Shown here piece by piece: positions 3,895 through 64,000 of a stretch of DNA of 64,000 nt. Where the stretch lies: assembly GCF_046105845.1 (NCBI RefSeq), contig NZ_CP151004.1; one strand, written 5' to 3'. Source of the stretch: Escherichia coli. GTDB lineage: Bacteria > Pseudomonadota > Gammaproteobacteria > Enterobacterales > Enterobacteriaceae. A program made the position numbers and the translations under genes. How positions within the stretch are numbered: the first letter of the stretch is position 1; each line of letters opens with the position of its first letter. The notes beneath the pieces are model-generated. The model saw only the letters and a program-made list of their open reading frames with translations. It did not search any database and was not told where the DNA came from.

Positions 3895-3915
3895 TCGGCT
3901 TTACCACCGTCAAAA

Positions 3916-3941
3916 AAAACGGCGCTTTTTAGCGCCGTTTT
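3916..3941. terminator. Bidirectional rho-independent terminator between arcA and creD
   Basis: aaaacggcgctttttagcgccgtttt hairpin flanked by A and T runs. Confidence 0.6.
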
Positions 3942-3953
3942 TATTTTTCAACC

Positions 3954-5306: not shown

Positions 5307-5363
5307 AGTCTTCTCCTTTGCAATGGCAGCAGGATACGAAGGCTATGTGGGAAGAATTTGAAG

Positions 5364-6788: not shown

Positions 6789-7477
6789 TACAGGCCCCTC
6801 AGGCTATATCCCATGCCGCGATGAGTATTAATCGGTGAAAGATCGGGGTTGATGGCGCGCAGCTTGGCACGCAGCGTTTTAATGTGGGTATCGACGGTGC
6901 GATCGTAGGTGTCCTGCGCATCTTCCCACACGCTATCCATCAGTTGCTGGCGGGACCAGACTCGGCCCGGTGACTTGAGTAACGTCTTCAACAATAAAAA
7001 CTCATACCGCGTCAGCGCTAATGGCGTGTCAAACCAGCTGATCTGCGCCGCGGGTTCATTCAATTCAAAATGTCCAATACGGATGACGGGAGACGGCGTC
7101 GAGAACTTCTTCACCCGACGCAGTAAGGTGCGCACCCTGGCGCACACTTCGCGGGGTGAAAACGGTTTAGCCACGTAGTCGTCAGCGCCAATTTCCAGCC
7201 CAAGCAGGCGATCGACCTCTTCACTTCGGGCCGTCAGGAACAGTACAGGTAACGCCGGATGGAGCGCCAGTAACTGGCGGCACAATTCAAAGCCACTGAT
7301 ATCAGGCAAACCAACGTCGAGAATCATGACATCGGGAACCTGCTGGCGAGCTTTATCCAGCACCGGCAAGCCTCGCTCAAAGACCTCGACGGCAAAACCT
7401 TCCTGCTGCAACATGTAGACCAGAGTGTCGGCTATCCCTTGCTCATCTTCCACTAACCAGACCGTTTCCCGTTGCAT
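6788..7477 (-). CDS. creB: Response regulator CreB (229 aa)
   Basis: ORF track; OmpR-family receiver plus winged helix. Confidence 0.9.
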   Translation of the reverse strand: MQRETVWLVEDEQGIADTLVYMLQQEGFAVEVFERGLPVLDKARQQVPDVMILDVGLPDISGFELCRQLLALHPALPVLFLTARSEEVDRLLGLEIGADDYVAKPFSPREVCARVRTLLRRVKKFSTPSPVIRIGHFELNEPAAQISWFDTPLALTRYEFLLLKTLLKSPGRVWSRQQLMDSVWEDAQDTYDRTVDTHIKTLRAKLRAINPDLSPINTHRGMGYSLRGL

Positions 7478-7489
7478 AAATCGCCTCTG

Positions 7490-7963
7490 TTATTGCCGCC
7501 ACGGCATGACAGGAACCGCGCTAATCGCGTTTTTCGGCGAACCTTCTACAACTTTGTCGGAGTAAGCCAGATAAGCGAGCGCGTTGCGTTTGGCGTCATA
7601 AAAGCGCACGACCTGTAACGACTTAAAGACCAGGGACGTGCGTTTTTTGAATACTACCTCGCCCTGAGCTTTGCCGTTTTTAATACGATCCGACAGTTCA
7701 ATCGGCCCGACTTGCTGACAAGAAATGGCCGCATCGGAGGTATCTTCCGCCAGACCCAATCCCCCTTTAATACCACCGGTTTTCGCCCGGCTCACATAAC
7801 AGGTGACATTTTTCACATCGGGATCGTCAAAGGCTTCCACAACAATTTTGTGATCCGGGCCGATCATTTTAAATACGGTGTCGACCGAACCAATCTCTTC
7901 TGCATGAGCCAATGGCCCCAGCATTATCAGGCTTAAAGACAGGATCAAATGCTTGTATTTCAT
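7490..7963 (-). CDS. creA: Periplasmic protein CreA (157 aa, signal peptide)
   Basis: ORF track; N-terminal signal sequence [21 protein letters not shown]. Confidence 0.85.
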
Positions 7964-8173
7964 ATTGTTACCATTTTTATCTATTACACGAGCAATTAGT
8001 TCGTCACGGTAAATAACATATTGATTAAGAACAAAATCTCAATACTTTTATTTCCGTCAAGCCCTAAAACATACTCTACTAAGAAAAAAACACTGAATGC
8101 TAAAACAGCAAAAAATGCTATTATCCAATTACCTGATGTCAGGTGCTCGTTGTTGAAAGGATGAGGATATTTT

Positions 8174-9043
8174 ATGGATCAGGCCGGCATTATTCGCGAC
8201 CTTTTAATCTGGCTGGAAGGTCATCTGGATCAGCCCCTGTCGCTCGACAATGTAGCGGCGAAAGCAGGTTATTCCAAGTGGCACTTACAGAGAATGTTTA
8301 AAGATGTCACTGGCCATGCTATTGGCGCGTATATTCGTGCTCGTCGTTTGTCGAAATCGGCGGTCGCACTACGCCTGACTGCGCGTCCGATTCTGGACAT
8401 CGCGCTGCAATACCGCTTCGACTCTCAACAGACATTTACCCGCGCATTCAAGAAGCAGTTTGCCCAGACTCCTGCACTTTACCGCCGTTCTCCTGAATGG
8501 AGCGCCTTTGGTATTCGCCCGCCGCTACGCCTGGGTGAATTCACTATGCCAGAGCACAAATTTGTCACCCTGGAAGATACGCCGCTGATTGGTGTTACCC
8601 AGAGCTACTCCTGTTCGCTGGAGCAAATCTCTGATTTCCGCCATGAAATGCGTTATCAGTTCTGGCACGATTTTCTCGGCAACGCGCCGACCATTCCGCC
8701 GGTGCTCTACGGCCTGAATGAAACGCGTCCGAGTCAGGATAAAGATGACGAACAAGAGGTATTCTATACCACTGCGTTAGCCCAGGATCAGGCAGATGGC
8801 TATGTACTGACGGGGCATCCGGTGATGCTGCAGGGCGGCGAATATGTGATGTTTACCTATGAAGGTCTGGGAACCGGCGTGCAGGAGTTTATCCTGACGG
8901 TATACGGGACGTGCATGCCAATGCTCAACCTGACGCGCCGTAAAGGTCAGGATATTGAGCGATACTACCCGGCAGAAGATGCCAAAGCGGGAGATCGCCC
9001 AATTAATCTACGCTGTGAACTGCTGATTCCGATCCGTCGTTAA
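8174..9043 (+). CDS. rob: AraC-family right-origin-binding transcription factor Rob (289 aa)
   Basis: ORF track; N-terminal AraC HTH and C-terminal GyrI-like domain. Confidence 0.9.
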   Translation: MDQAGIIRDLLIWLEGHLDQPLSLDNVAAKAGYSKWHLQRMFKDVTGHAIGAYIRARRLSKSAVALRLTARPILDIALQYRFDSQQTFTRAFKKQFAQTPALYRRSPEWSAFGIRPPLRLGEFTMPEHKFVTLEDTPLIGVTQSYSCSLEQISDFRHEMRYQFWHDFLGNAPTIPPVLYGLNETRPSQDKDDEQEVFYTTALAQDQADGYVLTGHPVMLQGGEYVMFTYEGLGTGVQEFILTVYGTCMPMLNLTRRKGQDIERYYPAEDAKAGDRPINLRCELLIPIRR

Positions 9044-9687
9044 CGCTGCAGCTCATCTAATGCAGGGGCGTCCAGATGCGAGATGTCCCCTGCGGTTTCA
9101 ACGACCCAGCCAGACGCCAGCCACAGGCTTTCCTGATAATCCACGCGCGAAATAGAACAGTTACGCAGACGTAAGCGGCGCTCTGCCCATGCTGGTAATC
9201 CGAGAATCGTACTCACCAGGCATCCCAGTGCAATACCGTGGCTCACCAGCAGCGGTCGGCTTCCCTGCGGTAAGTCCCGGCAAGATTCCAGTGCCGCATT
9301 GACGCGATCGCTGAGCTCCTGCATTGACTCGCCTTCAGGAATACGCCCGTCAACGGTGCCATTGACCAGCTGCCGACGCCAGTTCTCTTCTTCTTCGGTC
9401 AGAGAATCGATATGTCTTTTTTCCAGCACACCCATGTTTAATTCACGCAGGCGAGAATCAAAGATGATGTCACAGCCGCAGGCCTGGGCGATGATTTCCG
9501 CCGTACGCCGGGTGCGTCCTAAATCGCTACTGATGATATGCGTAATGCCAAGCTCTTTGGCACGGGTTGCCACCTGCATCGCCTGTTGCTCACCTTTGGC
9601 GGTCAGCGGGCTGTCAGACTGGCCCTGAATACGTCGCTCGGCGTTCCACTGCGTTTCACCGTGGCGGACTAGGTATACCTGTAACAT
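9040..9687 (-). CDS. gpmB: Phosphoglycerate mutase-family protein GpmB (215 aa)
   Basis: ORF track; MLQVYLVRHGETQWN histidine phosphatase motif. Confidence 0.9.
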   Translation of the reverse strand: MLQVYLVRHGETQWNAERRIQGQSDSPLTAKGEQQAMQVATRAKELGITHIISSDLGRTRRTAEIIAQACGCDIIFDSRLRELNMGVLEKRHIDSLTEEEENWRRQLVNGTVDGRIPEGESMQELSDRVNAALESCRDLPQGSRPLLVSHGIALGCLVSTILGLPAWAERRLRLRNCSISRVDYQESLWLASGWVVETAGDISHLDAPALDELQR

Positions 9688-9726
9688 GCTTTTTTTCCGT
9701 ATACTGCTGTAACGTTAATTTTCTGA

Positions 9727-10589
<863 letters not shown>

Positions 10590-10621
10590 TTAGCGGGGGA
10601 AGCAAAATGCCTCCCCCGGTT

Positions 10622-10639
10622 GTACTCGCTAAAGAGTAC
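10622..10639. promoter_or_regulatory. Candidate TrpR autoregulatory operator (GTACTC-N6-GAGTAC inverted repeat) in trpR promoter
   Basis: gtactcgctaaagagtac about 50 bp upstream of trpR start; resembles the TrpR box as I recall it. Confidence 0.5.
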
Positions 10640-10663
10640 GATAGCATATCATAAACGTGCGGA

Positions 10664-12601
10664 TCAGTAACGACGTCCCCATTCCGTGGCGCTCATCAAT
10701 GTCGGTTTATCCCCCATGAAATAGCGGTAGTAAGCGTCATAAGCCAGCACGTTCTTCACATAACCGCGCGTCTCGGAGAACGGAATACTCTCGACAAATG
10801 CCACTGCGTCGATACGCCCGGCGCTGTTGCCAAGCCAGGTTCGCACCCGTCCTGGTCCGGCGTTATAAGCTGCTGAGGAGAAAATACGGTTATTACCAAA
10901 CTGCTGATAAACATATTGCAGGTAACTGGTGCCAATGTTGATGTTTGTTTCCGGATCCAGCAATTGCCCAGGGCTGCTATAACCGGGAATAGAGAACATC
11001 TTCACCGTATGGGTCGCTGTACCCGGCATAATCTGCATCAGGCCGCTGGCCCCTACCGGTGATTTCACTTTCGGATTCCAGGCGCTCTCCTGACGGGCAA
11101 TCGCCATCGCATAGCTTTGCGGGATCTCCTTCCCACTGGTGTAACGTTTGAAAAGATCGTTGTAAGCCAGCGGGAATCGCTCTTCCAGATGATCCCATAG
11201 CTTCCCGGCGATCGTTGCCTGAACGCTAAGATCCCACCATTGGTTATTGAAAGCATACCGAGCCAGTTGAGCCTGCTCTGTTTTTGACTTGCTCTTCACC
11301 AGATTGGCCCACTCGCTACGCGCGGTATTATCGAGATTCCAGTACATCAACTCGCGCACGCGCGCCATCTCCGGCCCCTGAGTCAGGGCGCTGTCAACAT
11401 TCTGCGGCGCTTTATCAATCTTCAGCTCATACTCTTCGCCGATGCGTTGTGCTGCAACCATCGGGTAGAAACCACGCTGTTGCATGAGTTGATGCAAAAT
11501 CTCTTTTGCTTCAGCTTCACGTCCGCGTTCCAGCAGTAAATCCGCCTGCCAGTAACGCCATTCATCTTTCTCTTTCGCCTCCATCGGCAAACGCGCCAGC
11601 CAGGTATTCAGGCCGCGACGATCGCCGGTGCCAAGCGCCATTCGCACACGGCGTTCAATAAGCGAAGTAGATTGCGAACGCATAATGGCGTCATCACGCC
11701 ATTTCGCCTGTTCGTCGGTGACATCGTTGCCCATCAAACGCCAGGCGACGATATCGCGCAGCTCCTGAATCTGATCTTCATTAAGCTGCTGCGCCTGGGC
11801 AAGCGACGGGATCATCAGCCGTGCATTTTCAGCATCCTGCCGAGCCACACTGGCAAACGCCACCGCCGCCATTTGACGGGTAAAATCGGTCGCTCCGGTT
11901 GTACGCGCGAAGGTCAGTACCGTATTAGGGTTGTTCGCCAGTGAAATGATTGCCGAGGCGATAGTCTGGTAATCGGCAGGCATCTGCCCTGCCAGCACTG
12001 TTACCAGGCCAGTGTTACCCGCTTTCATCGCCAGACGGATACGCTCTAAATACGCCAGCGGATCTTGTTTACCTGACGCACGCCAGACGCTAAATAACTT
12101 GTCACAGGCGTTAGGCTGGCTCTTGCCGGTTAGCCACAGCTCTTTCGCCCCTTGCCAGGCTTCTTCACTCTGCCCGGTATTCCATTTCGCATAGTAGTAA
12201 TTACATTGCGCTTCGGTAGTTCCGGGCTTTTCCGGGCTAAAGGCTAACAAGCCACGCCAGTCTTCACGCCGCGCCAGTTCATTGACGAAACGAGATTGCA
12301 GCGTGCGAGCGGGAGGAAGCGTGGGGTTAGCGCGAACAAAGTTAGTGACCGTCACCGCCGGTTGATTCATCAGGTCATCGGTGATCTGACGGTATTCCAG
12401 GTAGGGATAAAGTGGATAATCCTTCAGTCCAGGCATCATTTGTTCGACCACATCCATTTGTCGATTATCCCAGGCCTGCTTGATTTGGGCGTAGCGGCTA
12501 CGCTGCTCATCCAGTGAGTCGGCTCGCGCCACGCTGCTGACCGTCAGCAGACAGACACCGGCAGCCAACAGCCGCCAGGTAACGTGTTTGGCTTTTTCCA
12601 C
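10664..12601 (-). CDS. slt: Soluble lytic murein transglycosylase Slt70 (645 aa, GTG start)
   Basis: ORF track 10664..12631; start set at GTG giving ...EKAKHVTWRLL signal peptide and 645 aa. Confidence 0.88.
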   Translation of the reverse strand: MEKAKHVTWRLLAAGVCLLTVSSVARADSLDEQRSRYAQIKQAWDNRQMDVVEQMMPGLKDYPLYPYLEYRQITDDLMNQPAVTVTNFVRANPTLPPARTLQSRFVNELARREDWRGLLAFSPEKPGTTEAQCNYYYAKWNTGQSEEAWQGAKELWLTGKSQPNACDKLFSVWRASGKQDPLAYLERIRLAMKAGNTGLVTVLAGQMPADYQTIASAIISLANNPNTVLTFARTTGATDFTRQMAAVAFASVARQDAENARLMIPSLAQAQQLNEDQIQELRDIVAWRLMGNDVTDEQAKWRDDAIMRSQSTSLIERRVRMALGTGDRRGLNTWLARLPMEAKEKDEWRYWQADLLLERGREAEAKEILHQLMQQRGFYPMVAAQRIGEEYELKIDKAPQNVDSALTQGPEMARVRELMYWNLDNTARSEWANLVKSKSKTEQAQLARYAFNNQWWDLSVQATIAGKLWDHLEERFPLAYNDLFKRYTSGKEIPQSYAMAIARQESAWNPKVKSPVGASGLMQIMPGTATHTVKMFSIPGYSSPGQLLDPETNINIGTSYLQYVYQQFGNNRIFSSAAYNAGPGRVRTWLGNSAGRIDAVAFVESIPFSETRGYVKNVLAYDAYYRYFMGDKPTLMSATEWGRRY

Positions 12602-43376: not shown

Positions 43377-43442
43377 AATTACCTCTCGCTTTTCTGCAAT
43401 AAAAAAGGCGTCATTTCTGACGCCCGTTATGGGTTATAAAAT

Positions 43443-44948
<1,506 letters not shown>

Positions 44949-47232
44949 GTTGCTGGTTTTTCTGGCGAAGACTCAGTTGTACCTGATATCGCTGCCGCTG
45001 CTGATCACCCATACCCACCGTGGCGATATCCAGGTCATGTTGCTGACGCTGAGCGCGCTCTTCTTCAGCCAGTTGACTGGTCAGCTGAATTGTTTTTTTC
45101 TTCAGATCGTTGAGTGCCGTCTGTTTCTGAAGCTCCTGCTGTTTTACATCCAGCAGCATCAGTGCCTGAATCAGTTCATCTTTACGGGCCAGCACACTCT
45201 TTTCATCTGTCGTCAGTTTTTTCCCGTCCAGATCGCTGATGCGCTGCTGCAGAGCCAGAAGCTGTTTATGCGCTTCTGTCATCTTTTCAGTGGCAATGCC
45301 TGCTGACTGTCTTGCAGCAGCAATCTGTCCTTCCACCTGTGCCTGTTGCTGACTGTACTGCAGCAATAACCGGGTGGCCTCATCATTACGGGTTTCGCGT
45401 GTTTTTTTCTTACCGGATGCCAGGGCTTTCTCGTAACGTTCATTTTCACGTTGTATCGCTGCATCCCTGACAGCCTGATCGGCGTACTGCATGGAATTAA
45501 TACGCGCAATTTCACGCTGATGTCGTGCTGCTTCCGATTCATTCATCCGGTTCAGTGCAGCATTTTCAGCATTACGTCGTTTCTGTTGCTCCTGATAATT
45601 CCGCTCTGCCTGCTCTTTTGCATCCTGCAAATCCTTCTGGCGTTTTTTCTCCTGAAGATCGTTAAGACGCTGCTGATCGTATTCAACCTGAGAAGATGAT
45701 GCCGTCCAGGGGAGTCTTTTCGCCCGCGACACTTTCTCCTGTAAAGCGGCAATCTGTTCATCCAGCGAGTCTTCACGACCAATATTCATGGCCGCATCCC
45801 AGAAACGACTCCACAAATCAGACAGATACTTCAGCGTACTGCCAAGCGCATTGAGGTTATTATCAATATCCGCAGTACGCCGACCGGTTTCCTCTGCCAG
45901 TGCAGACATGGCTATCCGTGCAGCATCACTGGACCGTCCCTGATCCCCAAGGACACGTATCTGCTCAAGCTGAGTGGCAGTAAGAAAATGCAGCTCATTG
46001 TCCAGAGCCTTCGCGGCATTTACAGGATCATCCTTCAGCCGCTTAAACTGACTTATGGTATCGCTGACCGACTGGCCAACCGATCGCTCCATCTGTGCGG
46101 CAGCTCTCGCCACCATACCGATATCGTTTCCACGAAATGCGCCACTCCCCACCACCTGAGCCAGCGCACCGGCTGCAGCATGTTGCGTGATACCATTCCC
46201 GGAAATAGCACGACTGAGCGTCCACAGCTGCCCGGCAGTGACTCCGGCATAATGCCCCGTCAGCGACAACTGGCGGTTAAATTCTTCCCCCTCCTTCTGA
46301 CCATCATACCAGGCTTTACCCAGACCATAGACGGCCGCGGCAATACCGCCAATAACCCCGCCCAGCATCATGCCTTTCGGTGACATCAGTGTGTCTATCC
46401 ATCCGGCACGGTTAGCCAGCGTTATCCCGGATCCCCTCAGCGCACCTAAATTGCCGCGAACCAGTTCACCTATCAGAACGCCTATCTCCTGGCGGGCCGC
46501 TGCACTTTTCAGCCCCAGCGAATGCGTGGCTTTTCCTGCCTGCTCCATTTTGCGGATATACACTTCTGCAGCACTGCTTACCCCCAGCTGGGCAGCCTTA
46601 GCACGAAGCAACTCAGAAGAAGAAAGATTCTGGCGGGTTGCCTGCTCTTTAAGCTGACGGATAAACGCCACTTTCTGTCGGGTAGCCTCTGCCTCAGCCT
46701 GCGTAAGAACACGGGTTTTCGCCGTAACCTCAGAAATCAGCGCCAGATAATCCTGCTGACCAATCCCGCCACTGTTTCTGGCCTGTCGGATCTGCTGCTG
46801 AATACGCTGTAATTCCTGCAGCCCCGCACTGGCCTGTTTCACACTGTCAATCTGACGATAAAACGCGGCAGCCGCTTTATCCTGAGCCTCCGCCAGAGCC
46901 ATGGCCTGCGCCTGTTCCTCACGCATTTTCTGGCTCAGTGCCTCCATACGCTGGCGGGTTTGCTCCACCTCGCGGGCCATGCGTTCATGAGCCTGTGCGC
47001 TCTTCTCCACCGTCTGCGCATGGACGGATGCGGCTGTTGCAGCCGAAGAAGCCGCCTGCATTGTCTGCCGGGCGGCCTGAGTCTGACGCTCCATAAAACG
47101 CTGCATACGGGCAGAAGACCGTTCTGCATCGCTGGCTGCACCATTCAGAAGGTTTTTGATACGGGGAATTTCATTTTTAAACTCTGCCGCATCAATCCCC
47201 AAATCAATGACCAGGTTGGCTATCTGGTCCAT
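44949..47232 (-). pseudogene. Lambda H-like tail tape-measure gene, 3' end truncated by the IS insertion
   Basis: ORF track 44944..47262; reading frame continues to the IS boundary and stops 1-2 codons inside the IS; coiled-coil rich, overlaps gpT end. Confidence 0.7.
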
Positions 47233-47533
47233 AACGCACACCTCCGGAAATACCTTCCCCAAGATGCATCAGTTCTTCGTCCGTTCGCTCCGGTATCCCG
47301 TTCTCTTCCGGTAAAAGGCTGAAATCAGCCACCGCAGCATCACTGCTACCGGACACCATTCTCACGATCAATGCCTTCAGCGAGGCAAACTGCGCATCCA
47401 TCCACACATCACTGAAGCTCTGCATCCGGAAATAATCGCCCCACTCACCAAGCTCAGTGGCCGACATTTCCGACAGCATCCGCCGCCAGTCTGCCCGTCG
47501 GAACTCCCGGGCAAGCCGCATGACAAACTGCAT
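47204..47533 (-). CDS. Tail assembly chaperone T portion (expressed as G-T fusion by -1 frameshift)
   Basis: ORF track; -1 frame relative to G, open from within the last codons of G; candidate slippery GGAAAAG (plus-strand 47548-47554). Confidence 0.6.
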   Translation of the reverse strand: MQFVMRLAREFRRADWRRMLSEMSATELGEWGDYFRMQSFSDVWMDAQFASLKALIVRMVSGSSDAAVADFSLLPEENGIPERTDEELMHLGEGISGGVRYGPDSQPGH

Positions 47534-47541
47534 TTCCCGCG

Positions 47542-47928
47542 TCAGGACTTTTCCGGCGTCAGCGCCTCATGCTCATCATCCCCGGCATTATCAATGGTCC
47601 CCATACCGCTCAGCGACAGAACCATCTCCGCCCCCGCACCCAGGGCATCATACGACCATGTTGTAATAACGGATGCGCAAAGCGTCTCTACATCCTTAGA
47701 CTGATCCGCATTCCACAGTGAGCGGGAAACCAGCCAGGCATTGATATCCATCCCCATCCGCAGAAAAGCAATCTGTCGTTCAGCCTCCGGCAGTTCTCCC
47801 TCTTCGGCATCAAACTTTGCCGTTCGCTGCTGAACAAACGCCAGATATTCAATTCTCTGCAGCCCGGACAGCTCACTGAGCACCACGGACTGCTTTTCAT
47901 AATTAAACGTGCCCTGTTTCAGAAACAT
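47542..47928 (-). CDS. Tail assembly chaperone G (lambda gpG-like)
   Basis: ORF track 47542..47970; start at MFLKQGTF resembles lambda G MFLKTESF. Confidence 0.7.
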   Translation of the reverse strand: MFLKQGTFNYEKQSVVLSELSGLQRIEYLAFVQQRTAKFDAEEGELPEAERQIAFLRMGMDINAWLVSRSLWNADQSKDVETLCASVITTWSYDALGAGAEMVLSLSGMGTIDNAGDDEHEALTPEKS

Positions 47929-47988
47929 CATGTTCTCCACCTGCAAAAAAGCCCCGGATAATCGGGGCAAATGATGAGTATCGTCCTG

Positions 47989-48732
47989 TTAACCTGCGGC
48001 GCTGACAGCCACCGTAGCCACTGCCACAAAATCGCCGTCAGAAGTCATGCCCACAATGCTGACACTGCCCTGCTTCACGCCTTTCACCGTGGCCACAAGC
48101 CCGTTCAGGGTCACCGTGGCAGTCTGTGGATCTGTCGAATGCACACTGATCGCTTTGTCACTGGCTCCGTCAGGTTTTACTGTAAAGGTCAGCGTGGTGG
48201 TTGCTCCCACTTTTACACTGGCAGATGCCGGTGCCACCGTCAGCCCGGTAACGCCCACGGTTTCAGTGCCTTCTTCTGCCAGATACGGACGCCCCACACC
48301 GCTGATTTTCACTGTGCGGGTCATCACGTCTTTTGAGGCAATGGTTTTACCCAGTGAACTCAGCCAGCCACGGAAAACATCAACAGTACCGTTGGGATAT
48401 TTGATACGAAACGCGCAGACTTCACCGGAGTCGAACAACTGAACCAGTTTTTTCTGCCCGCTGTCACCCGGACGCCAGGCCAGCGTCGCCGAAGTATCAC
48501 CGACGGATTTCTGCCCCTGGGTTGTCGTTTTCCAGTCTGCATCTTCATCATCGAGATAAGTGTCATCTTCTGCATCAGCGGTCATTTCGCCAGGTTGCAG
48601 ATCCTTCACCATCGCAAGACGCAGCCAGTCAGTGTCCGACAAAGGGTTCGCAAACGCATCGCCGTTGCCGGTATACATCCAGAACGTCGTCCCCGCACCT
48701 TTCGTCTTTGCCAGTGGATTTGGTGTGGTCAT
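47989..48732 (-). CDS. Major tail protein V-like with C-terminal Ig-like domain
   Basis: ORF track 47989..48807; start at MTTPNPLAKTKGAGTTFWMY; about 247 aa. Confidence 0.8.
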   Translation of the reverse strand: MTTPNPLAKTKGAGTTFWMYTGNGDAFANPLSDTDWLRLAMVKDLQPGEMTADAEDDTYLDDEDADWKTTTQGQKSVGDTSATLAWRPGDSGQKKLVQLFDSGEVCAFRIKYPNGTVDVFRGWLSSLGKTIASKDVMTRTVKISGVGRPYLAEEGTETVGVTGLTVAPASASVKVGATTTLTFTVKPDGASDKAISVHSTDPQTATVTLNGLVATVKGVKQGSVSIVGMTSDGDFVAVATVAVSAAG

Positions 48733-48742
48733 TACCACCTCC

Positions 48743-49144
48743 TTAATTCGTGTACGTGATCTGGTACGTGATTTCCGCCATCGCCCAGGTGGCCATCTCA
48801 TTATCACGTTGATAGTTAAAACCGAGTGGGATCAGGGTGTCGATGAGTCCGGAAAGTGCCGGTACATCATTCAGGGCAGGGAAAATGGTGCTCTCCATCC
48901 ACATATCCAGCTCTGAATCCGGTGCCTGTGCCCGGATGAAGACGGCAATATGCAGAACAGCCTGCCAGTCATCTTCATCCGTCATTTTTCCGGTGTACTG
49001 AGCATCACTCAGCCACACCGCCACGGCAGGCAGTTCCTGCGCATCAATAAATGCCGGAAGCCCGTCAAAAAACGTGGCGCTGTCTCCACACTGTTCCCGA
49101 AGGCGTGCCAGTACGGCCTGGCGGATTTGTGTATGTCGGTTCAT
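48743..49144 (-). CDS. Minor tail protein U-like (tail terminator)
   Basis: ORF track 48743..49156; resembles lambda U (..ATFFDG..PAVAV...ITY..). Confidence 0.7.
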   Translation of the reverse strand: MNRHTQIRQAVLARLREQCGDSATFFDGLPAFIDAQELPAVAVWLSDAQYTGKMTDEDDWQAVLHIAVFIRAQAPDSELDMWMESTIFPALNDVPALSGLIDTLIPLGFNYQRDNEMATWAMAEITYQITYTN

Positions 49145-53889: not shown

Positions 53890-54107
53890 CAGAACCTCGC
53901 AAGCCGGTACCCGGGATGCCCCCGTCGTCGTGTAATCAGAGCCGCAAGGCGGCGCTCCCACTCCTGCCGTCCCTGCCGGATCTCAGATAAGTTTTCCATG
54001 GTCATCTGCTGACCATTAAAGGTGACGGATTTTCCGTCCAGCACCGCCATTTCAGCTTCCGTATAACGCTGAATCATGGCTTCGATATCATTCTGGTTCA
54101 TAACCAT
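53889..54107 (-). CDS. Head-tail joining protein W-like (72 aa)
   Basis: ORF track; between terminase large subunit and portal. Confidence 0.6.
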   Translation of the reverse strand: MVMNQNDIEAMIQRYTEAEMAVLDGKSVTFNGQQMTMENLSEIRQGRQEWERRLAALITRRRGHPGYRLARF

Positions 54108-56200
54108 CCTCCGGAAGTCAGCCAGGGGTTAACATCGTCAGTTACTGTTTTCTTCCGTTTTTGTTTTTTAACAGGCGTGGATACCGGTTCCGGTGTGGGT
54201 GACGGTTCGGTACTGTCCGGGACACACTCCAGCCAGGTTTCCCGGCTCGCCCACTCCGGTGCATCCGGCCAGCGGATCTTTTCGTATCCATGCAGAATGA
54301 CCAGAGCCTCGGCATACACCATCAGGTCAAAAGCTTCGTTGGCACCGCGACCCGGCTTACTCCATTTCCCGTCACTGCTCCGCTCTTCATACGTCAGTTC
54401 GTCGTAAAACCAGCTCCCCAGCCAGTCAGGGAAATGCACATAGCCGGGACCTGGCGAGTCACGCCATAACGCGTTATTCACCCGGTCTTTCAGGGCATCC
54501 GTCTGAAGAAGCCAGAGCGGTACATCACCTGCGGCCTGCGCCCGTCGGCCCGTTCGTCCGGTGTTATCAGGGAATGTACGGGTGATCAGTTTTGCGCGCC
54601 GGATGCTGTCGCCCTTAAACAGGTAAATACGTTTACCAAGGCCATCACGACGGCAACGACGCCAGAATTTATAGGCATTATCAGTGACTCCGTCTTCACC
54701 GCCGGAGTCCACCGCCATTGCCATCAGTCGCATTTGTTGAGAAGGATCGGAGGCCAGCGGCCAGCTTTTATGAAAAACATCCGTCAGCAGGACATCCCAG
54801 TCTTCCGGATAGCTGGCCGGATCAATTCGCTGGCTCTCCCCGTCGCTGTCACCGCGCAATGACTGCGTGATGTTGTAACGATCAATAATCCAGCGTTCGC
54901 CACGGCTGCCATAGCCCGTTACCTGAACCACAAAACGGCGATGACGTCCCGCCTGCACATCAACTGTCGCCACCAGGAAATTAACGCCATCCGGCACACT
55001 GCGGGAAGGAACTGGCTCTGCCCGCTGCTCAAGCAGTTCACTTTTTCGTTGCTCCATGCTGGCACGGGGAAGATAAGGTAATCCCCAGTCGGTATTGATA
55101 ACCGTCTTGAGTGTTTCTTCACTTCCGGTTGTCTCGTATTCCTGTTCTGCAGCAAGCAGTTTGTAAACGAGTTGCGAGAGTGTCTGGTAAGCAGCTGCCG
55201 GACCCTCCATCCAGAATGACGCAATACGTGAGCGTCGGGGATCACCATAACGACTGCCATCCGCATTGATGGATTCACCATCCCGCAACCAGACCCCACG
55301 TCCGTTCAGCTCACGTTTTTGTTCAGGCATAATCCGTCCTGAACAGGAAGGACACTGAATATAAGCCGCCTCACTTGCCAGCACGGGATCGGCAATATCA
55401 CGGAAACCAGCAACCACATCGCCGCAGGGCTGAAAATACTCACCACAGTGTGGACAGGGCCAGTACCAGCGACGGCGATCGCCACGGTTATAGAGCGACA
55501 GTATCCCCGTGGTTGGTGGAGCCTCATGCGGTGAAGTCCGTCGCCATTTCACATCCTTCACATCCCTGCCGGGGGAACTCTCCACCAGCGTCATACCACT
55601 GGACATAAATGTGGTGGTACGTTTTGAGGCAAGAGAGAAGGCATCCCCCTCGCCATCAATATCTTCCGGAAAACGGTCATAATCCGTCAGCGCCACGCAT
55701 TTATAATCTGATGAGGACATGATATTGACTGACGGCCAGCCGATTTTCAGGTAGTTGCCAGCAAGGAATGTTCTGTCATAAACGTTGTTGTCATTTTTGT
55801 TCGGACTCAGGCGACTGACCACTTCCGGGCTGACGCGAAACGTTCTGGCAAGTCGTTTTTTGGAGTGTTCGCGGGCTTTTTCCTCCGTCATCTGAATGAT
55901 CAGCATATCAGCAGGATCGCAAATCACGTTGTAAATCACCCAGCCGTCAATCAGGCCGATAGTCTTGCCAGTTCGTGCCGGGCCAACAAATATCACTGCG
56001 TCGTATTCACGCGAGGCCAGGCAGTTCATCGGCTCAATAACATACGGTGCCACCAGCGGATCCCACGGGACTGAGTTCCCGGCCCCCATGGGCACCCGCA
56101 TATACTGAGCAACGGCATCAGCAACCCGCATTCGTCTCGGTGCGCGAAGGATATAACCTGAATCGGTTCGTGCTGCCTTTGCGGTTTCCTGATTCAGCAT
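54098..56200 (-). CDS. Terminase large subunit (lambda A-like), 700 aa
   Basis: ORF track; Walker A GPARTGKT, nuclease domain. Confidence 0.9.
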   Translation of the reverse strand: MLNQETAKAARTDSGYILRAPRRMRVADAVAQYMRVPMGAGNSVPWDPLVAPYVIEPMNCLASREYDAVIFVGPARTGKTIGLIDGWVIYNVICDPADMLIIQMTEEKAREHSKKRLARTFRVSPEVVSRLSPNKNDNNVYDRTFLAGNYLKIGWPSVNIMSSSDYKCVALTDYDRFPEDIDGEGDAFSLASKRTTTFMSSGMTLVESSPGRDVKDVKWRRTSPHEAPPTTGILSLYNRGDRRRWYWPCPHCGEYFQPCGDVVAGFRDIADPVLASEAAYIQCPSCSGRIMPEQKRELNGRGVWLRDGESINADGSRYGDPRRSRIASFWMEGPAAAYQTLSQLVYKLLAAEQEYETTGSEETLKTVINTDWGLPYLPRASMEQRKSELLEQRAEPVPSRSVPDGVNFLVATVDVQAGRHRRFVVQVTGYGSRGERWIIDRYNITQSLRGDSDGESQRIDPASYPEDWDVLLTDVFHKSWPLASDPSQQMRLMAMAVDSGGEDGVTDNAYKFWRRCRRDGLGKRIYLFKGDSIRRAKLITRTFPDNTGRTGRRAQAAGDVPLWLLQTDALKDRVNNALWRDSPGPGYVHFPDWLGSWFYDELTYEERSSDGKWSKPGRGANEAFDLMVYAEALVILHGYEKIRWPDAPEWASRETWLECVPDSTEPSPTPEPVSTPVKKQKRKKTVTDDVNPWLTSGGWL

Positions 56201-56691
56201 TACTCCTCCTGCTGTAATTCCTCCTCATCATCCGCACCTGCTTCGGTCACCCGCAGGGCTATCTGATCGCGCAGATCATCAATAATGGACTGAACACGGC
56301 TCACAGCGGCAGGCTGCAGGCCGCAGTCACGTTCCAGAATATCCGGTAATGTCTCCAGCACCTGCACGACCGCTTTTGCCCAGATGGCAAACTCCCGTCT
56401 GACATCACTGGCCGGAATGAGTTGTGCCGTTTCCTGTTCGAACTTAAGACGCTCACGTTCAGACTGATACCAGGCTTTGCGTTCATGTGGATCCATTTCG
56501 CCCTCAGCAACCGGCGGTGGTAACCCCATAAATTCAGTCAGAATATCGGTCAACCGGTATAGCTTGAGTTTGTCATGTCCACCAGCGGGACGAATGTTTT
56601 TCAGTCTTGCCACGACAGTCTGGCGGTGCAGACCAGATAAAGCCGCCAGTTGATTAATATTCAGCACCAGGTTTTTCAACTCATGATCCAT
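56200..56691 (-). CDS. Terminase small subunit (Nu1-like, N-terminal HTH)
   Basis: ORF track; directly upstream of terminase large subunit with overlapping stop/start. Confidence 0.7.
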   Translation of the reverse strand: MDHELKNLVLNINQLAALSGLHRQTVVARLKNIRPAGGHDKLKLYRLTDILTEFMGLPPPVAEGEMDPHERKAWYQSERERLKFEQETAQLIPASDVRREFAIWAKAVVQVLETLPDILERDCGLQPAAVSRVQSIIDDLRDQIALRVTEAGADDEEELQQEE

Positions 56692-57451: not shown

Positions 57452-57775
57452 TTTGTCGCTCCATGCGTTTGCTCTTCACTTGCGGCTAAAAATATAACGT
57501 CAAATCACTCAGCATGAAAGAGTGAAAGTTTCAGCGCGTTTCCCTTACATAATCTGTCGTTTGTATTCTCTTCAGGCATACCGGAAAGACTAGGTATTGT
57601 CACACAACCAATACCATCGACAATCGAGATTTATATCTATTCGGTAATGTTTAAATATAACAAAACCCCGTAAAAACGAGGTTTATGGGTATTTTGTTGT
57701 CTGAAATTTATGCCGTTTAAAATCATGACGTTAGAAGCACTGTTTTTTAACGATGGCGACAAAATGGCGGCAGCG

Positions 57776-57991
57776 TCAAAGAGAGAGCGCCACCTGTCCT
57801 GATTTCATTGGATGCGGCTGAACCGGATTTGACTCTTTTGGCGTTGCAATCGAACGAACAAAAGTTTCATGGGTTACAAAAGTATGGCTGCAGTTAATAT
57901 TCTGGCACTGGTTGTAACGCTCTTTGGTCAATGAAGATACCTGAAAACTGCTGCGAGTATGGGCGGCACTTCCACACAGTGGGCAAATCAT
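57776..57991 (-). CDS. ogr: P2 Ogr-type zinc-finger late-gene activator (about 71 aa)
   Basis: ORF track 57776..58027; CPLC...CQNINCSHTF zinc-binding pattern matches Ogr (CPLC...CQNVNCSATF). Confidence 0.8.
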   Translation of the reverse strand: MICPLCGSAAHTRSSFQVSSLTKERYNQCQNINCSHTFVTHETFVRSIATPKESNPVQPHPMKSGQVALSL

Positions 57992-58084
57992 CATTTTTCG
58001 AGTTCTCCCCATTTTTGCTAAATTCACAATAATGATACCGCATTATTCCATTTTGCAAACTTAAAAGTTCTCCATTGCGAAGAA

Positions 58085-59185
58085 TCATTCCATTTCGAAA
58101 TCATCAATCCTCACTTCAAGCTCCAAACTGGTCGTAAAACCGTTATCCGGGCTGACGGTATGCGTCAGAGTCGTAATGGTCCATTCCGCATCATCTATCG
58201 GCTGTTTAAAACCACTGACCTTCACAGGCATTTCCGTGTAGAGATCTGCCCGCCCTTCTGCCAGTTGTAGCGAAAATGACGCAACGCCGCGTTGCAGGCG
58301 TTCCCACTGCATTTTCGCCGCTCGTTCGGCGTTGCTTCGGTTGGCATAAGTGCGATTAAGTACCAGCACGTTTTCATCCGTACCCACCAGGTAATCGCCC
58401 TGCTTCGCTTCTGGCTCTTTCTTCTGCTTCTTAGTTCTGCGCTTACGCTTCACCGTGGTGCTTTCTTTCTTCGCAGGTTCGCGGGTATGCAACCAGCTGG
58501 CAATTACGCCCGTGTAGGCTCCGCGATCTGCCAGGGTAAATCGGTGACTGTCGCCGTCCTTGCGTGTGATAGTGATCACTGGCAGAGGTTTACCAGTGGC
58601 GCTTTTGCCCTGCCCCTGCCGGATGAATAACAGATTGCCATTTTTCACCGACGCGATGGCACCGTACTGTCGCGCCAGCCGCATCAGAAAACTGCCGTCA
58701 CTCTCATTAGTCTGGTCTATATGCTCCACGGGCTTATCCGACAGGTCTTTACCCAGTGCCATCTTCAGCTTGTGCCGCGCGGCTATTTCCTTCACCACTT
58801 CCCCGACGGTGGTCTTATGCCACGATTTTTCACGGCGGGTATTCAGCGTTTCCCGAAAATCAGCACTTCGCGCCCGGATAGTCAGGCGGTCCGGTGCGCC
58901 AGTGTGTTCAATCTCGTCCACTGTGAATGCCCCTTTCGGGAAAAGCGGCTGCCCCTTCCAGCCCAGCGCCAGCGTAATAACCGCACCACGGCGCGGCAGC
59001 ACGATTTTTCCGTCAGCGTCATCCAGCTCCAGATCAAGCTGGTCCGCTTCAAAGCCCCGGTTATCCGTCAGCGTCAAACTCATCAGGCGGTTATCCAGCA
59101 CAGTGGTGATATCCCTGCCCTCAATACTGATGCTGAATGCGGGAGTTTTGTTGCCTTTGTTAAGCAGTTCAGAGCTGAAATTCAC
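58085..59185 (-). CDS. P2 gpD-like late control / tail protein D (366 aa)
   Basis: ORF track; position between U and ogr. Confidence 0.85.
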   Translation of the reverse strand: MNFSSELLNKGNKTPAFSISIEGRDITTVLDNRLMSLTLTDNRGFEADQLDLELDDADGKIVLPRRGAVITLALGWKGQPLFPKGAFTVDEIEHTGAPDRLTIRARSADFRETLNTRREKSWHKTTVGEVVKEIAARHKLKMALGKDLSDKPVEHIDQTNESDGSFLMRLARQYGAIASVKNGNLLFIRQGQGKSATGKPLPVITITRKDGDSHRFTLADRGAYTGVIASWLHTREPAKKESTTVKRKRRTKKQKKEPEAKQGDYLVGTDENVLVLNRTYANRSNAERAAKMQWERLQRGVASFSLQLAEGRADLYTEMPVKVSGFKQPIDDAEWTITTLTHTVSPDNGFTTSLELEVRIDDFEME

Positions 59186-59667
59186 GACAGCAGCCCTCCC
59201 ACCGTTTTACTGATATCGCTTAAGGCAGACGTTGCCGTGTCCTGCAGATTATTCAGTTGCGCACTGAGATCACCGAACATATCGGACAGGGATTCATCCA
59301 CTCGTTTGAGCGACAGGGTGAACTCAATCCGGCGCGGCATACCGTCGCGGAAAAACTCCGTTTTAGTCTGATTCAGTCCCTCAATCACATACATGCCGTA
59401 AATCGTGCCGCTGCCTTCAATCAGGGGCCATGCTTTCCCCTGTTCTGCCATCTGCTCCAGTGCCAGCAACGACAGCCTGCCGCCTGTTATCTCCGGCATA
59501 AGAACACCGGAAAGCGTCAGCATGTCGTTGTCCGGTCCCAGAAACTGCGTGGACGGACGACGATTTACCCGGCTGTTAGCCACATGTCGCCAGCTGCGCT
59601 GATACTGCAGTTCCTGATACGGCACGGTGCGCAGCATAAACACGTACAATCCCAGCACCATCATCAT
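59182..59667 (-). CDS. P2 gpU-like tail protein (161 aa)
   Basis: ORF track; overlaps D start and T stop. Confidence 0.8.
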   Translation of the reverse strand: MMMVLGLYVFMLRTVPYQELQYQRSWRHVANSRVNRRPSTQFLGPDNDMLTLSGVLMPEITGGRLSLLALEQMAEQGKAWPLIEGSGTIYGMYVIEGLNQTKTEFFRDGMPRRIEFTLSLKRVDESLSDMFGDLSAQLNNLQDTATSALSDISKTVGGLLS

Positions 59668-62600
59668 GCGTCGTATCCCCCCTGATCGCTGTAGTTACTC
59701 CTGGCTTTTGCCTTCAGCCTGCGTTCACGTTCATCAAGCTGGCGGGCCACCTCCCGCGCAATATCCTGCGCACTTTGTCCTGGCTGTGTCTGGATGATGA
59801 TCTGCGTCGGTGCTTCAATCCGTTGAACGGGCGGCACAGTGGCTGCACGACTCACCATCGCTTCACCGCCTTTCGCGGGAAGTGCCAAAGGGTGCAACGG
59901 TGGAAGCTCTGCTGGCGTAGCAGCAACACCCATCATTCCGGCAACAACGGCAGCCAGTGCAGCTGTATTTCTCCGGCTGGTCACATTTGCCGGGCCGTTA
60001 ACAATTTCCGGCCCGTTTTCACCGACGATGCCAAACTGCCCGCGCGGGATATACCCGCCGCTGTCATACATCCCCGCAAAGCCATATCCCCATGACGGAA
60101 AACCACCCGATGGCATCATCACTTTACCGTCTGCATTCACCGTCGCAGGTTGCTGACGCGTCACGCTTTCCGGCAGTTTCGCCTTTGCGGCCTCTTTACT
60201 GACAATGCCAAGTTTCTCCAGCAACCAGGAAACGCCGGATTTCAGCGAGTCCAGCGGATGCATGACCATATTCAGCCCTTCCGCCAGAGCCTCCCCGAAT
60301 CGTCGCCCCATTGCCGCTGCACTCTGCAGTTCGGCAGAGGTCGACTTAACGGGCGTCAGCAGATCAGTAAACCAGCCCCACAGCGCCTGTACTTTGTCGC
60401 CAATCCACTGGAACACAGGCTTAAGCGGTTCGAACGCGGCACTGACAGGACCTGCCGCCGCTTTGAATCCTTCCACCACGCCACCGAGAAATGCGGTGAT
60501 GGGCTGCCAGTATTTCCAGACAACCAGCGCCACACCCGCCAGTGCAGTAACCACAAGACCTATCGGACTGAGCAGAGCACCTAACAGACCAGAGACGGCA
60601 TACAGGGCAACGCGCAGCATCGCCAGTGGACCGGATGCGAGCATACGCAGCACCGTGCCTGTGGCAGCCAGTCCGCCGCGTAGTACCGCCAGTGGATTCA
60701 TAAACATCACAGCAACCGCACGTAAACCGGATAATCCAGACCGCAAAAGTGCAACCGGCGCACCTGCTACAGTTTTCAGGATATTTCCCGTCAGTAATGC
60801 CGTGCGGCGCAAAGACGACAACGGCGCAGTAAGTAAACCTGCAGCGTTGCCCGATGAAGCAAGCCCGCGTCGCAGCAGTGCCAGTGGTGCGCCAGCCAGC
60901 CAGGACAACGCGTTGCTGGTTCGGGTTACTGCTGCCGTAACGGAAGGTAACGTTTTGATACCCAGCACAGAGAATCCCAGACGGATGACTGCCAGCGGCC
61001 CCAGCACTGCAGCCAGCGCCACCGCTAAGGTGCCGAGGCCCACGGTAACGGCAGCTACCACAGCGGCTACTTTCATCAGAGTGCCCGTCAGTTCCGGGTT
61101 AGCTTCCACCCAGCGACGCAACGCCCCCGTGACGCTTTTCACCGTGTACAGAATATCCATCAGCGGCTGGCGCAGCGTTTCCCCCAGGCTGCTGAAGGTG
61201 TTCTGTGCTCCGGTTTTGACCAGCAACCACTGAGCAGAAAGTGAATCCTTGTTGATGTCGGATTCTTTCTGCATGGAACCGAGCGCATCATTGCCCGCTG
61301 TCAGTTTTAACTGGCGCTGAAGTTCCGGCAGGTTGTTTGCCAGTTTCGCTGCGTCATCGCCAAACTCTTTACCAAACAACATGGTCATGGCAGACAGGCG
61401 CTTATCCTGTGGCAGCGCATTCACCTTCTCCAGCACGCGCTGGATAGTTCCCATCGCATCCTTCGTCATCTGCTTTTCAATCACTTCTGGATTGAGTTTC
61501 AGCAGATTCATCCCTTCAAAGAAACTCTTGCTTTGCATGGTGGCAATGGACAATTCACGCACCATCGCGTTTGCTGCACTGGCTGCAACCTCAGGCGCAG
61601 CGCCGAGTGTCAGGAAGGTGGAACCCAGCGCCGCCGCTTTACGATAATCCAGACGGTCAGCCACACCGCCCAGGCGTTGCATGACATCAATGATGTCCGC
61701 CCCTTTCGACATGGCGTTATCATCCAGATAGTTCAGCGCATCACCGAGCTGCTCAATATTGCGGGTAGGGATTTTGTAGAGCTGGGCGATTTTCCCCAGA
61801 CTTTCTGACAGTTCATCCGCTGGCAGTTCAAAGGCTGTTGCCGCCTTTGCCGCCGTGCTGGCGAAGGCCAGCAGGTCACGTTTCTGATCTTCCCAGCTGT
61901 CGTCAGGGTTTGCGACGTTCATGCGCGCACCACCTTCAACCAGTGCAGCGAAGTCCACCGCACCGTTTTCCATCGGCAACTGTTCGCTGGCAGCCTTGAT
62001 GGCATCCTGCATTTCATAAAAACGTGCAGTGCGGTTGCCATTATCGTCACGCAGACCATTGACCTGCTTTGCCACACCTTTCATGGCATCTTCCATGCTG
62101 GTATAGCTTTTTACTGCCGCCATCACTGGCGCACCCATTGCCAGCCCTGCAGCCGTGGTGGTAGCTCCGGCACCTGCAATACGATCACGCACCTCCAGCG
62201 AACGGGCATAACTGGCACGCGCTGCATTCATCCTGCGCTGAGCTTCCCCCAGTCGCTTCAGCCGCGCCTCCTGTTTCGAAAGTTCCTGGTTATAACGTGA
62301 TGTTTCACGGGCTAAACGGGCAGTTGCTCCCGCATCGTCTTTCGCAGAAATTCCCGCCCGGTACAGTTCAGCACGCACAAGCGCCGTCTGCTGCTGCAGC
62401 TTTTTCTGGCGTTCTTCTAGGCGCTGAACAGCCAGCCGTTGACGGCCCAGAGCAACAACCTGACGTTGCGAAGGCGGCCCCATCGCTCCCAGTTCCTGAC
62501 TGAGCAAATTTGCACGCTGGCGGGCATAGTTCAGCCTGTCGCCTAATTTCTGATTTTCTGCCTGCAGCTTTCGGAAGCTGTCCAGACTGCTCCCGGCCTG

Positions 62601-62741
62601 ATCAAGCTGCTTTATTGCATCGCGGGATTTTTTGACAGCAGCAGCCAGTTCTCTTGAACTGGCCTGCGCAGATCGAAATGGGCGGGTGAGCTTGTCAACC
62701 GCATTAAGAATGACCTGCAGACGCAGGTTGTTATCACTCAT
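59664..62741 (-). CDS. P2 gpT-like tail tape measure protein (1025 aa)
   Basis: ORF track; long coiled-coil plus hydrophobic repeat region, follows E/E+E'. Confidence 0.85.
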   Translation of the reverse strand: MSDNNLRLQVILNAVDKLTRPFRSAQASSRELAAAVKKSRDAIKQLDQAGSSLDSFRKLQAENQKLGDRLNYARQRANLLSQELGAMGPPSQRQVVALGRQRLAVQRLEERQKKLQQQTALVRAELYRAGISAKDDAGATARLARETSRYNQELSKQEARLKRLGEAQRRMNAARASYARSLEVRDRIAGAGATTTAAGLAMGAPVMAAVKSYTSMEDAMKGVAKQVNGLRDDNGNRTARFYEMQDAIKAASEQLPMENGAVDFAALVEGGARMNVANPDDSWEDQKRDLLAFASTAAKAATAFELPADELSESLGKIAQLYKIPTRNIEQLGDALNYLDDNAMSKGADIIDVMQRLGGVADRLDYRKAAALGSTFLTLGAAPEVAASAANAMVRELSIATMQSKSFFEGMNLLKLNPEVIEKQMTKDAMGTIQRVLEKVNALPQDKRLSAMTMLFGKEFGDDAAKLANNLPELQRQLKLTAGNDALGSMQKESDINKDSLSAQWLLVKTGAQNTFSSLGETLRQPLMDILYTVKSVTGALRRWVEANPELTGTLMKVAAVVAAVTVGLGTLAVALAAVLGPLAVIRLGFSVLGIKTLPSVTAAVTRTSNALSWLAGAPLALLRRGLASSGNAAGLLTAPLSSLRRTALLTGNILKTVAGAPVALLRSGLSGLRAVAVMFMNPLAVLRGGLAATGTVLRMLASGPLAMLRVALYAVSGLLGALLSPIGLVVTALAGVALVVWKYWQPITAFLGGVVEGFKAAAGPVSAAFEPLKPVFQWIGDKVQALWGWFTDLLTPVKSTSAELQSAAAMGRRFGEALAEGLNMVMHPLDSLKSGVSWLLEKLGIVSKEAAKAKLPESVTRQQPATVNADGKVMMPSGGFPSWGYGFAGMYDSGGYIPRGQFGIVGENGPEIVNGPANVTSRRNTAALAAVVAGMMGVAATPAELPPLHPLALPAKGGEAMVSRAATVPPVQRIEAPTQIIIQTQPGQSAQDIAREVARQLDERERRLKAKARSNYSDQGGYDA

Positions 62742-63170
62742 CGTTGGCCCCGCTTCTCTGAATCGCTTTATACCGCCATTCCAGCACTTCGGTCAGCGGC
62801 ATAACGTCAGTAACGGATGGCGGCCAGTGAAAAATGGTGGCGATATCTGCCACCAGATCGTCAACCGTCAGGCTGTCGGTAAACCGGCAAGCACCGACTT
62901 CTTCAACAAAAAAGTGACAACCTCAACCGACATGGCAGTGAGATCTGCCGGGTCCATCTCTGCAATTTCCTGTGCAGTCAGTGCCGGACTGGAGATGCGG
63001 GGGATCACGGTCATCATCGCGTTTACATCCATATCCATAATGGCCTGCAGGCGTGTACCGCGCAGCGCACCGGACTGCGGTTTACGCAGCACAATTTCGG
63101 TGATTTCTGTTTTACCGCGCTTGATGGGGGTATCCAGTTGAATGGTCTTTTCAGTCTGCTTATCGCTCAT
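62734..63170 (-). CDS. P2 gpE / gpE+E' tail assembly chaperones (E = 62868..63170; E+E' by -1 frameshift at T-TTT-TTG, plus-strand 62907-62913, ending 62734)
   Basis: ORF track for E; manual translation shows -1 frame open from the slippery site to a TGA overlapping the T start codon. Confidence 0.75.
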
Positions 63171-63224: not shown

Positions 63225-63740
63225 TCAGAGGCCGAGGGCGTTGCGGTGCGCTTCCATCAGGTCCACACCGTCCACAATTTCCACCATGTTGATAAGGTCC
63301 ACTTCATAGAGCACCTCACCATTGATGGTCAGCTTCGCGTAGCTGTTGGTACTGGTCACTTTGGTGGTGTTGCTTTCGCCCGTCTTCCACTCGCCGGAAT
63401 CCACTTCTTTGTGACGTCCACGCACGACAAGCTCCACGGCCTGCACTTCCGCGGTATCGTCACGCTGAATAGAGCCGGTAAAGCGCAGCTGGATGCCATC
63501 CACCGTGGCTTTACCCATCTGTTTAAACAGCAGCAATTCAGTACCACCAATGGAAAATTCTGTGTCCAGCGCACTGTCATCAAGCCCCAGATCCACATCC
63601 ACCGCACCCGGCATTCCGCCGCCGCGATACTTCTCATATTTGCGGGTAAATTTCGGCAGCGTCAGCGACTCAACGATCCCCTGCCAGTTGTTCCCGTCGT
63701 TAAACAGGTTCAGGTGTTTTAATTTGCGTGGTAAAGCCAT
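63225..63740 (-). CDS. P2 FII-like major tail tube protein (171 aa)
   Basis: ORF track; downstream of tail sheath gene. Confidence 0.85.
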   Translation of the reverse strand: MALPRKLKHLNLFNDGNNWQGIVESLTLPKFTRKYEKYRGGGMPGAVDVDLGLDDSALDTEFSIGGTELLLFKQMGKATVDGIQLRFTGSIQRDDTAEVQAVELVVRGRHKEVDSGEWKTGESNTTKVTSTNSYAKLTINGEVLYEVDLINMVEIVDGVDLMEAHRNALGL

Positions 63741-63749
63741 GTTGTCCCC

Positions 63750-64000
63750 TTACGCGCTGACCTGGCTGGCGAAATTCACCAGGTACTGATCGGTGATGCG
63801 CTGACGCAGCATCAGGTTTTCAAGTGGCGGCACTGGCGTGTAGTCGTAGTCGATGGTGAGTTTTCCGGCTTTCAGCGTGTCTTTGTCGTTCACCGACTCA
63901 TCCAGCCAGCAATCACCACCAATGAGATAGCCCTGACAGACCAGGCTGCGCATTTTGGCGCGGATACCTTCGATAATGTCGCGGGCCAGCGACGGGTTAA
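63750..64000 (-). CDS. P2 FI-like tail sheath protein, C-terminal end (gene continues beyond window)
   Basis: ORF track 63750..63953 and open frame to window edge; position upstream of FII. Confidence 0.7.

Follow-up and report, generated by a model that had tools for sequence, protein, structure and literature searches.

A P2-type E/E+E' tail-assembly-chaperone cassette with a predicted -1 frameshift in a P2-like prophage of Escherichia coli

Based on Pfam matches in both reading frames, a gene layout shared with P2, identity to known phages and conservation among relatives, we conclude that a locus in a 64,000-nt stretch of Escherichia coli DNA (contig NZ_CP151004.1, assembly GCF_046105845.1; the whole stretch is hereafter the window) is very probably the E/E+E' tail-assembly-chaperone cassette of a P2-like prophage, used by -1 ribosomal slippage. 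The same evidence supports an earlier note on this DNA, which had proposed that a P2-type E/E+E' -1 frameshift is intact here. The cassette is already known biology: the recoding site is a textbook one, and the prophage that carries it is almost identical to phages already described. Its significance lies mainly in correct annotation, as a frameshift fusion instead of a free-standing 39-aa open reading frame (ORF), and no new biology is implied.

Results

Anatomy of the cassette

The elements of the cassette, which together occupy exactly 62734-63170, are the following.

62868..63170, minus strand: gene E (tail assembly chaperone, frame-0 product), 100 aa, stop codon TGA at 62870..62868, from the ORF list and its translation
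62907..62913, minus strand: slippery heptamer T_TTT_TTG, in X_XXY_YYZ phase in the E frame (codons ACT-TTT-TTG)
62734..62907, minus strand: E' extension in the -1 frame, 57 codons plus TGA at 62736..62734

The heptamer TTTTTTG contributes to codons 86-88 of the 100 codons of E and was correctly placed near the end of the gene by the earlier note: it is in phase at 62913..62907, 13 codons before the stop. It lies inside a stretch that is open in both frames, the -1 frame opening at 62922 and E stopping at 62868. That the -1 frame stays open for about 60 codons is likewise borne out, as it is free of stops over 62922..62737, or 62 codons, 57 of which lie past the shift site and lead to the TGA at 62736..62734. 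E residues 1-88 joined to the E' extension make up a 145-aa E+E' fusion. The TGA had also been said to overlap the start codon of the tape measure gene T, which is not so: it covers codons 2-3 of T (ATGAGTGA), 2 nt after the ATG at 62741..62739, and the reading frame of E' overlaps the start of T by 8 nt.

Both parts of the fusion belong to recognized protein families. E, read in frame 0, matches PF10109 (Phage_TAC_7, tail assembly chaperones E/41/14) at 1e-18 over residues 9-88 (67.5 bits; cut-off 25) and PHROG 103 ('tail protein') at 2e-42. The -1-frame part matches PF06528 (Phage_P2_GpE) at 2.6e-18 over fusion residues 107-143 and the full model (1-37/37; 65.6 bits, cut-off 23), as well as PHROG 6416, a 39-aa family, while a match to PHROG 1756 covers fusion residues 84-145 and thus spans the E/E' junction. 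NCBIfam holds no model for the E+E' fusion, and a sequence search of the PDB returned no solved relative.

Likeness to P2 and to named phages

Phage P2 provides the reference arrangement.

19430..19705 of P2 (NC_001895): E, 91 aa
19430..19857 of P2 (NC_001895): E+E', two-part CDS, 142 aa, frameshift site marked at 19685
19850 of P2 (NC_001895): start of T

Compared by coordinates, the two cassettes have the same heptamer in identical phase (GGT-TTT-TTG in P2, ACT-TTT-TTG here), the same 177 nt from the first T of the heptamer to the E' stop, and the same 8-nt overlap of E' with T; the gene position FII-E-E'-T and the Pfam families are all shared as well. P2 gpE+E' and the 145-aa fusion are 49% identical and align without a gap at the junction, just after which V89, E91, G93, A94, F97, L101 and VDDL 103-106 are common to both. 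The differences are of size and detail: E has 100 aa here and 91 in P2, the fusion 145 and 142, frame 0 runs on for 13 codons past the heptamer as against 7, the stop codon is TGA rather than TAA, and the downstream tape measure protein has 1025 aa as against 815. In P2, frameshifting at TTTTTTG yields the 91-aa E and the 142-aa E+E' (PMC3091744). The Burkholderia phages KS5, KS14 and KL3 (Lynch et al. 2010, PMC3091744) also keep the TTTTTTG site, with fusions of 143-157 aa, and, as here, have no downstream hairpin; their identity to this cassette is only about 50% and their hosts are of high GC content.

Much closer relatives exist. Over the 531-nt E/E' region, Escherichia phage 500465-1 (Wadgaonvirus wv5004651, Peduoviridae, NC_049342; gp38/gp39) is 100% identical at the nucleotide level, Klebsiella phage KP12 99.8% and Escherichia phage Cartapus 98.5%, with identical gene order in all three, and many further Klebsiella and Escherichia phages lie at 97-99.8%. 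Across the wider tail segment, 500465-1 is 97.9% identical over 5914 nt, up to window position 58087, where identity stops before ogr. A match to the tail segment is present in 3273/5426 complete E. coli genomes. Judged on the stretch from the FI 3' end through ogr, the prophage falls within the Peduoviridae (P2-like) and is of Wadgaonvirus type.

Conservation and selection

Conservation was assessed in a diverse set of 15 loci from Escherichia, Salmonella, Klebsiella, Yersinia, Serratia, Burkholderia, Ralstonia, Pseudomonas, Halomonas, Acidovorax, Vibrio, Zymomonas and Mannheimia. An in-phase TTTTTT[G/C/T] lies within the doubly open stretch in 14 of the 15, and Mannheimia has GGGAAAG. When searched by tblastn with the fusion, 424 phage records were matched, and the match falls into two pieces in 47 of the 50 that were listed. 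Among 80 IMG/VR loci, 79 carry TTTTTTG and one TTTTTTA, and none of the 80 has a stop in the -1 frame before the shared one; all of these loci are 100% identical in E, so that they are informative for polymorphism in E' only, and the synonymous pattern upstream is biased by their selection.

The distribution of substitutions changes at the heptamer. In comparison with Salmonella phage RE2010, substitutions at E-frame codon positions 1/2/3 number 7/4/33 upstream of the heptamer and 2/11/5 downstream of the E stop; in comparison with a Klebsiella phage relative, they number 17/7/40 upstream of the site and 3/13/3 downstream. Since E-frame position 2 corresponds to position 3 in the -1 frame, the shift of substitutions to -1-frame third positions past the site indicates that selection moves to the -1 frame.

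The surrounding tail operon

FII, the tube gene, and T, the tape measure gene, flank the cassette, and the gene order as a whole is FI-FII-E-E'-T-U-D-ogr.

63750..64000, minus strand: 3' end of FI (tail sheath), last 82 codons open, running off the window; position matching FI in E. coli XYEH3783
63225..63740, minus strand: FII (tail tube protein), 171 aa, PF04985 at 6.7e-60
59664..62741, minus strand: T (tail tape measure protein), 1025 aa, PF10145 and TIGR01760 at 7.6e-94, first 8 nt overlapping E'
59182..59667, minus strand: U, 161 aa, PF06995 (Phage_P2_GpU) at 7.6e-44
58085..59185, minus strand: D, 366 aa, PF05954 (Phage_GPD) at 2.5e-27
57776..57994, minus strand: ogr (late-gene activator), 72 aa from ATG 57994, PF04606 (Ogr_Delta) at 6.7e-22, coordinates assigned from the corresponding gene of XYEH3783

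FII, T, U, D and ogr had been called intact, and all five proved to be full length, equal to the genes annotated as intact in XYEH3783, to which the alignment runs over 6322 nt with 96 mismatches and no indels. On this stretch, FI 3' end through ogr only, the P2-like tail module may be functional, as the earlier note had argued; the sheath N-terminus, the baseplate, the fibres, the late promoters and the head and lysis genes belong to parts of the element outside the window. The part of the operon that lies in the window has no obvious lesion, which matters for predicting the release of P2-like phage or tail-like particles.

Discussion

Signals in the sequence, homology in either frame and the conservation of both are what is shown here; the actual slippage at E/E', its efficiency and the protein interactions involved are inferred, on the following scheme. 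Most ribosomes would translate E as far as its frame-0 stop at 62868, giving the 100-aa chaperone, and a minority would slip back by 1 nt on T_TTT_TTG, with tRNA-Phe in the P site and tRNA-Leu in the A site, to read V-E-E-V-G-A-C-R... for 57 codons to the TGA just inside T, giving the 145-aa E+E'. Residue 88 would be Leu (...SVEVVTFLVEEVGACR) if both tRNAs slip together after TTG has been decoded, and Phe (...SVEVVTFFVEEVGACR) if the P-site tRNA alone slips. By analogy with lambda gpG/gpGT and with P2, E would bind T, the tape measure protein, while E' would serve to recruit FII, the tail tube protein; correct tail length would depend on a fixed ratio of E to E+E', and neither product would be expected in the virion. 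These proposed chaperone roles, binding of the tape measure, recruitment of the tube protein and absence from the virion, are taken over from lambda and from P2 genetics as reviewed in PMC5009743. Within the P2 type, it is for P2 itself that synthesis of both proteins at a set ratio, each essential to tail assembly, is known (PMC3091744, PMC5009743).

The lambda pair follows the same logic: its two products share an N-terminus, the -1 slip takes place close to the 3' end of a gene that immediately precedes the tape measure gene, and tail assembly requires the products in a fixed ratio. However, the families differ (PF06894/PF06223 in lambda, PF10109/PF06528 here), as do the heptamers (G_GGA_AAG and T_TTT_TTG), and the lambda tail is that of a siphovirus whereas P2-type tails are contractile. 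The gpG/gpGT chaperones of lambda have reportedly been described by Levin (1993) and by Xu, Hendrix and Duda (2004, 2013, 2014), and the gpE/gpE+E' frameshift of P2 is said to go back to Christie et al. (2002, J Bacteriol). The ratio of G to GT in lambda is about 30:1, and the efficiency of the P2-type frameshift is reported to be 2-3 fold above that of lambda (PMC5009743, citing Christie et al. 2002).

Signals in the RNA around the heptamer were also considered. A site of the dnaX/IS911 type would have a stable and conserved stem-loop or pseudoknot 5-9 nt downstream, and this assignment was rejected: the single-sequence fold 3' of the heptamer gives no significant structure (z = -1.49; the equivalent P2 region, z = -2.53), a consensus fold of seven sequences yields no more than a helix of 5 bp (-3.1 kcal/mol) that has 0 compensatory pairs, and Rfam has 0 matches at the frameshift region. 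A 6-bp GUCGGU/ACCGAC hairpin 8 nt downstream was discarded as well: a Klebsiella phage shows a single change in it that looks compensatory, but the P2, Yersinia and Burkholderia relatives do not conserve it. The missing 3' structure does not really speak against the cassette, because P2 and the Burkholderia P2-like phages have likewise been published without one (PMC3091744).

On the 5' side, a Shine-Dalgarno-like GAGGT (62920-62924, minus strand) precedes TTTTTTG by 6 nt and is predicted to pair with the anti-Shine-Dalgarno sequence more strongly than any other site in gene E (-6.8 kcal/mol). As (A/G)AGGT, 6-7 nt before the heptamer, the motif occurs at the same place in about 9-10 of the 15 diverse P2-like loci; in the five enteric phages the rarer GAG or AAG codon is used at this position. 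That the upstream (A/G)AGGU could act as a 5' stimulator by pairing with rRNA is a rather doubtful suggestion, and the motif may simply reflect conservation of the encoded Glu/Lys-Val residues. The optimal spacing of the Shine-Dalgarno-like sequence in dnaX is 10-14 nt, and the spacing at the E heptamer is shorter. If the suggestion were true, such a stimulator might explain how the P2-type site surpasses lambda 2-3 fold in efficiency without a 3' structure.

The bare pattern of a heptamer followed by an open -1 frame is weak evidence for frameshifting. TTTTTTG occurs 22 times over both strands of the window. When the 163 mechanical ORFs were crudely scanned for any XXXYYYZ in phase with 40 or more further codons open in the -1 frame, the result lacked discrimination: 13 qualified, most of them spurious and overlying real genes, with the genuine IS3 orfA/orfB site also among them, although of the 13 only E used TTTTTTG. 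Open -1 frames behind some in-phase heptamer are thus not rare, which is what speaks for a mere coincidence of a run of T with an open off-frame, E' being noncoding. We accept the frameshift cassette because of the homology in the -1 frame, the conservation of the heptamer and its phase, and the switch in codon-position bias. A noncoding E' would hardly match PF06528 at 2.6e-18, show a codon-position bias that switches at the heptamer, or belong to an arrangement kept across hundreds of phages; pure coincidence, whose probability we regard as negligible, is excluded by the PF06528 match, the conserved heptamer in relatives and the bias switch.

Two other routes to an E' product presuppose that the frame is coding. 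The first of these is already in public annotation, where E' figures as a gene of its own.

62734..62853, minus strand: 39-aa 'GpE family phage tail protein' as publicly annotated, GTG start; probably no separate gene

Such a gene, starting at GTG 62853 and needing no frameshift, is annotated in NC_049342 (gp39) and in E. coli XYEH3783 (NZ_CP110996, WP_000763311.1), the 39-aa ORF lying at 6378-6497 in the compared 500465-1 locus and at 4148-4267 in that of XYEH3783; the records of 500465-1, KP12 and Cartapus all give E' as a separate ORF without a frameshift fusion, and PHROG 6416 is itself a family of 39-aa proteins. Yet the position aligned with the supposed start is occupied by M, V, A, I or W across the 15 relatives, so the start codon is not conserved, and no Shine-Dalgarno-like sequence precedes GTG 62853. 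Upstream of that GTG, moreover, the -1 frame already carries a conserved V-[DE]-[DEN] motif and residues invariant in comparison with P2, namely V89, E91, G93, A94, F97, L101 and V103-L106; the PHROG 1756 match crosses the junction, the heptamer is conserved in phase among the relatives, and the P2 counterpart is both annotated and published as a frameshift fusion (PMC3091744). An independent E' gene is thus very unlikely, and the practice of RefSeq/PGAP and of several phage records of splitting E' off as a 39-aa GTG ORF looks like a systematic annotation artefact.

The -1 frame might instead be reached by transcriptional slippage, if RNA polymerase put one additional U into the U6 run, and the heptamer does contain a homopolymeric run of T6. 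To slip efficiently, however, E. coli RNA polymerase commonly requires a run of some nine residues or longer, and six is short. What is conserved, furthermore, is the phased X_XXY_YYZ heptamer, which takes the form GGGAAAG in Mannheimia, rather than the length of the run. Although some bacterial and IS genes are known to use transcriptional slippage as another route (reviewed in PMC5009743), the P2 case is described as translational (PMC3091744, PMC5009743), and we consider the transcriptional route highly improbable here. Ribosomal slippage on T_TTT_TTG is accordingly the reading adopted for E/E+E'.

The end of the P2-like element and its neighbourhood deserve separate comment. The prophage ends just past ogr and there borders directly on a lambdoid (Qin-like) prophage, at the late region of the latter.

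57679..57697: limit of the P2-like element, 19 nt in which P2-like and lambdoid homologies overlap (ACAAAATACCCATAAACCT), putative hybrid att core
56200..56691: lambdoid DUF1441 gene
54098..56200: lambdoid terL

The overlap ACAAAATACCCATAAACCT is similar to the att junction that this type of phage has on the ybjL side in XYEH3783, and in other E. coli genomes gnsB comes next at the spot where the P2-like element abuts here. The junction of ogr with the lambdoid prophage was found in none of the 5,426 complete E. coli genomes. With one junction present in the window, the arrangement looks like integration of the P2-like prophage at a secondary att-like site within the lambdoid prophage; a misassembly is also possible. 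Identity to the XYEH3783 prophage continues through ogr to 57679, whereas that to 500465-1 ends at 58087, before ogr, which makes the ogr/att end a mosaic with respect to 500465-1, the named phage that is closest. The chromosomal flank at 3000-11000 (creBCD, arcA, robA) reaches no more than 99.5% identity with any of the 5,426 complete E. coli genomes and 95-99% with most of them.

The lambdoid prophage in the same window has a tail region of its own.

47989..48807: lambdoid major tail gene V
47542..47970, minus strand: lambdoid G (PF06894)
47204..47533, minus strand: lambdoid T (PF06223), in the -1 frame of G
44944..47262: lambdoid tape measure gene H, truncated
43727..44074 and 43894..44940: orfA and orfB of the IS3-like ISEc31, with an A_AAA_AAG -1 frameshift site

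The earlier note had set the P2-like tail against an IS-damaged lambdoid one, and the damage is indeed there: H is truncated by ISEc31, and nothing remains of M, L, K and I and little of J. Within the region 43380-47262, ISEc31 joins the truncated H to a 3' remnant of J, and beyond the element lie the J remnant, lom, stf, tfa and an invertase. The lambdoid G and T genes constitute a second tail-chaperone frameshift pair in the window (47204-47970), with a doubly open stretch at 47566-47545, in which the sole candidate slip site is G_GAA_AAG (47554..47548), non-canonical in comparison with the G_GGA_AAG of lambda.
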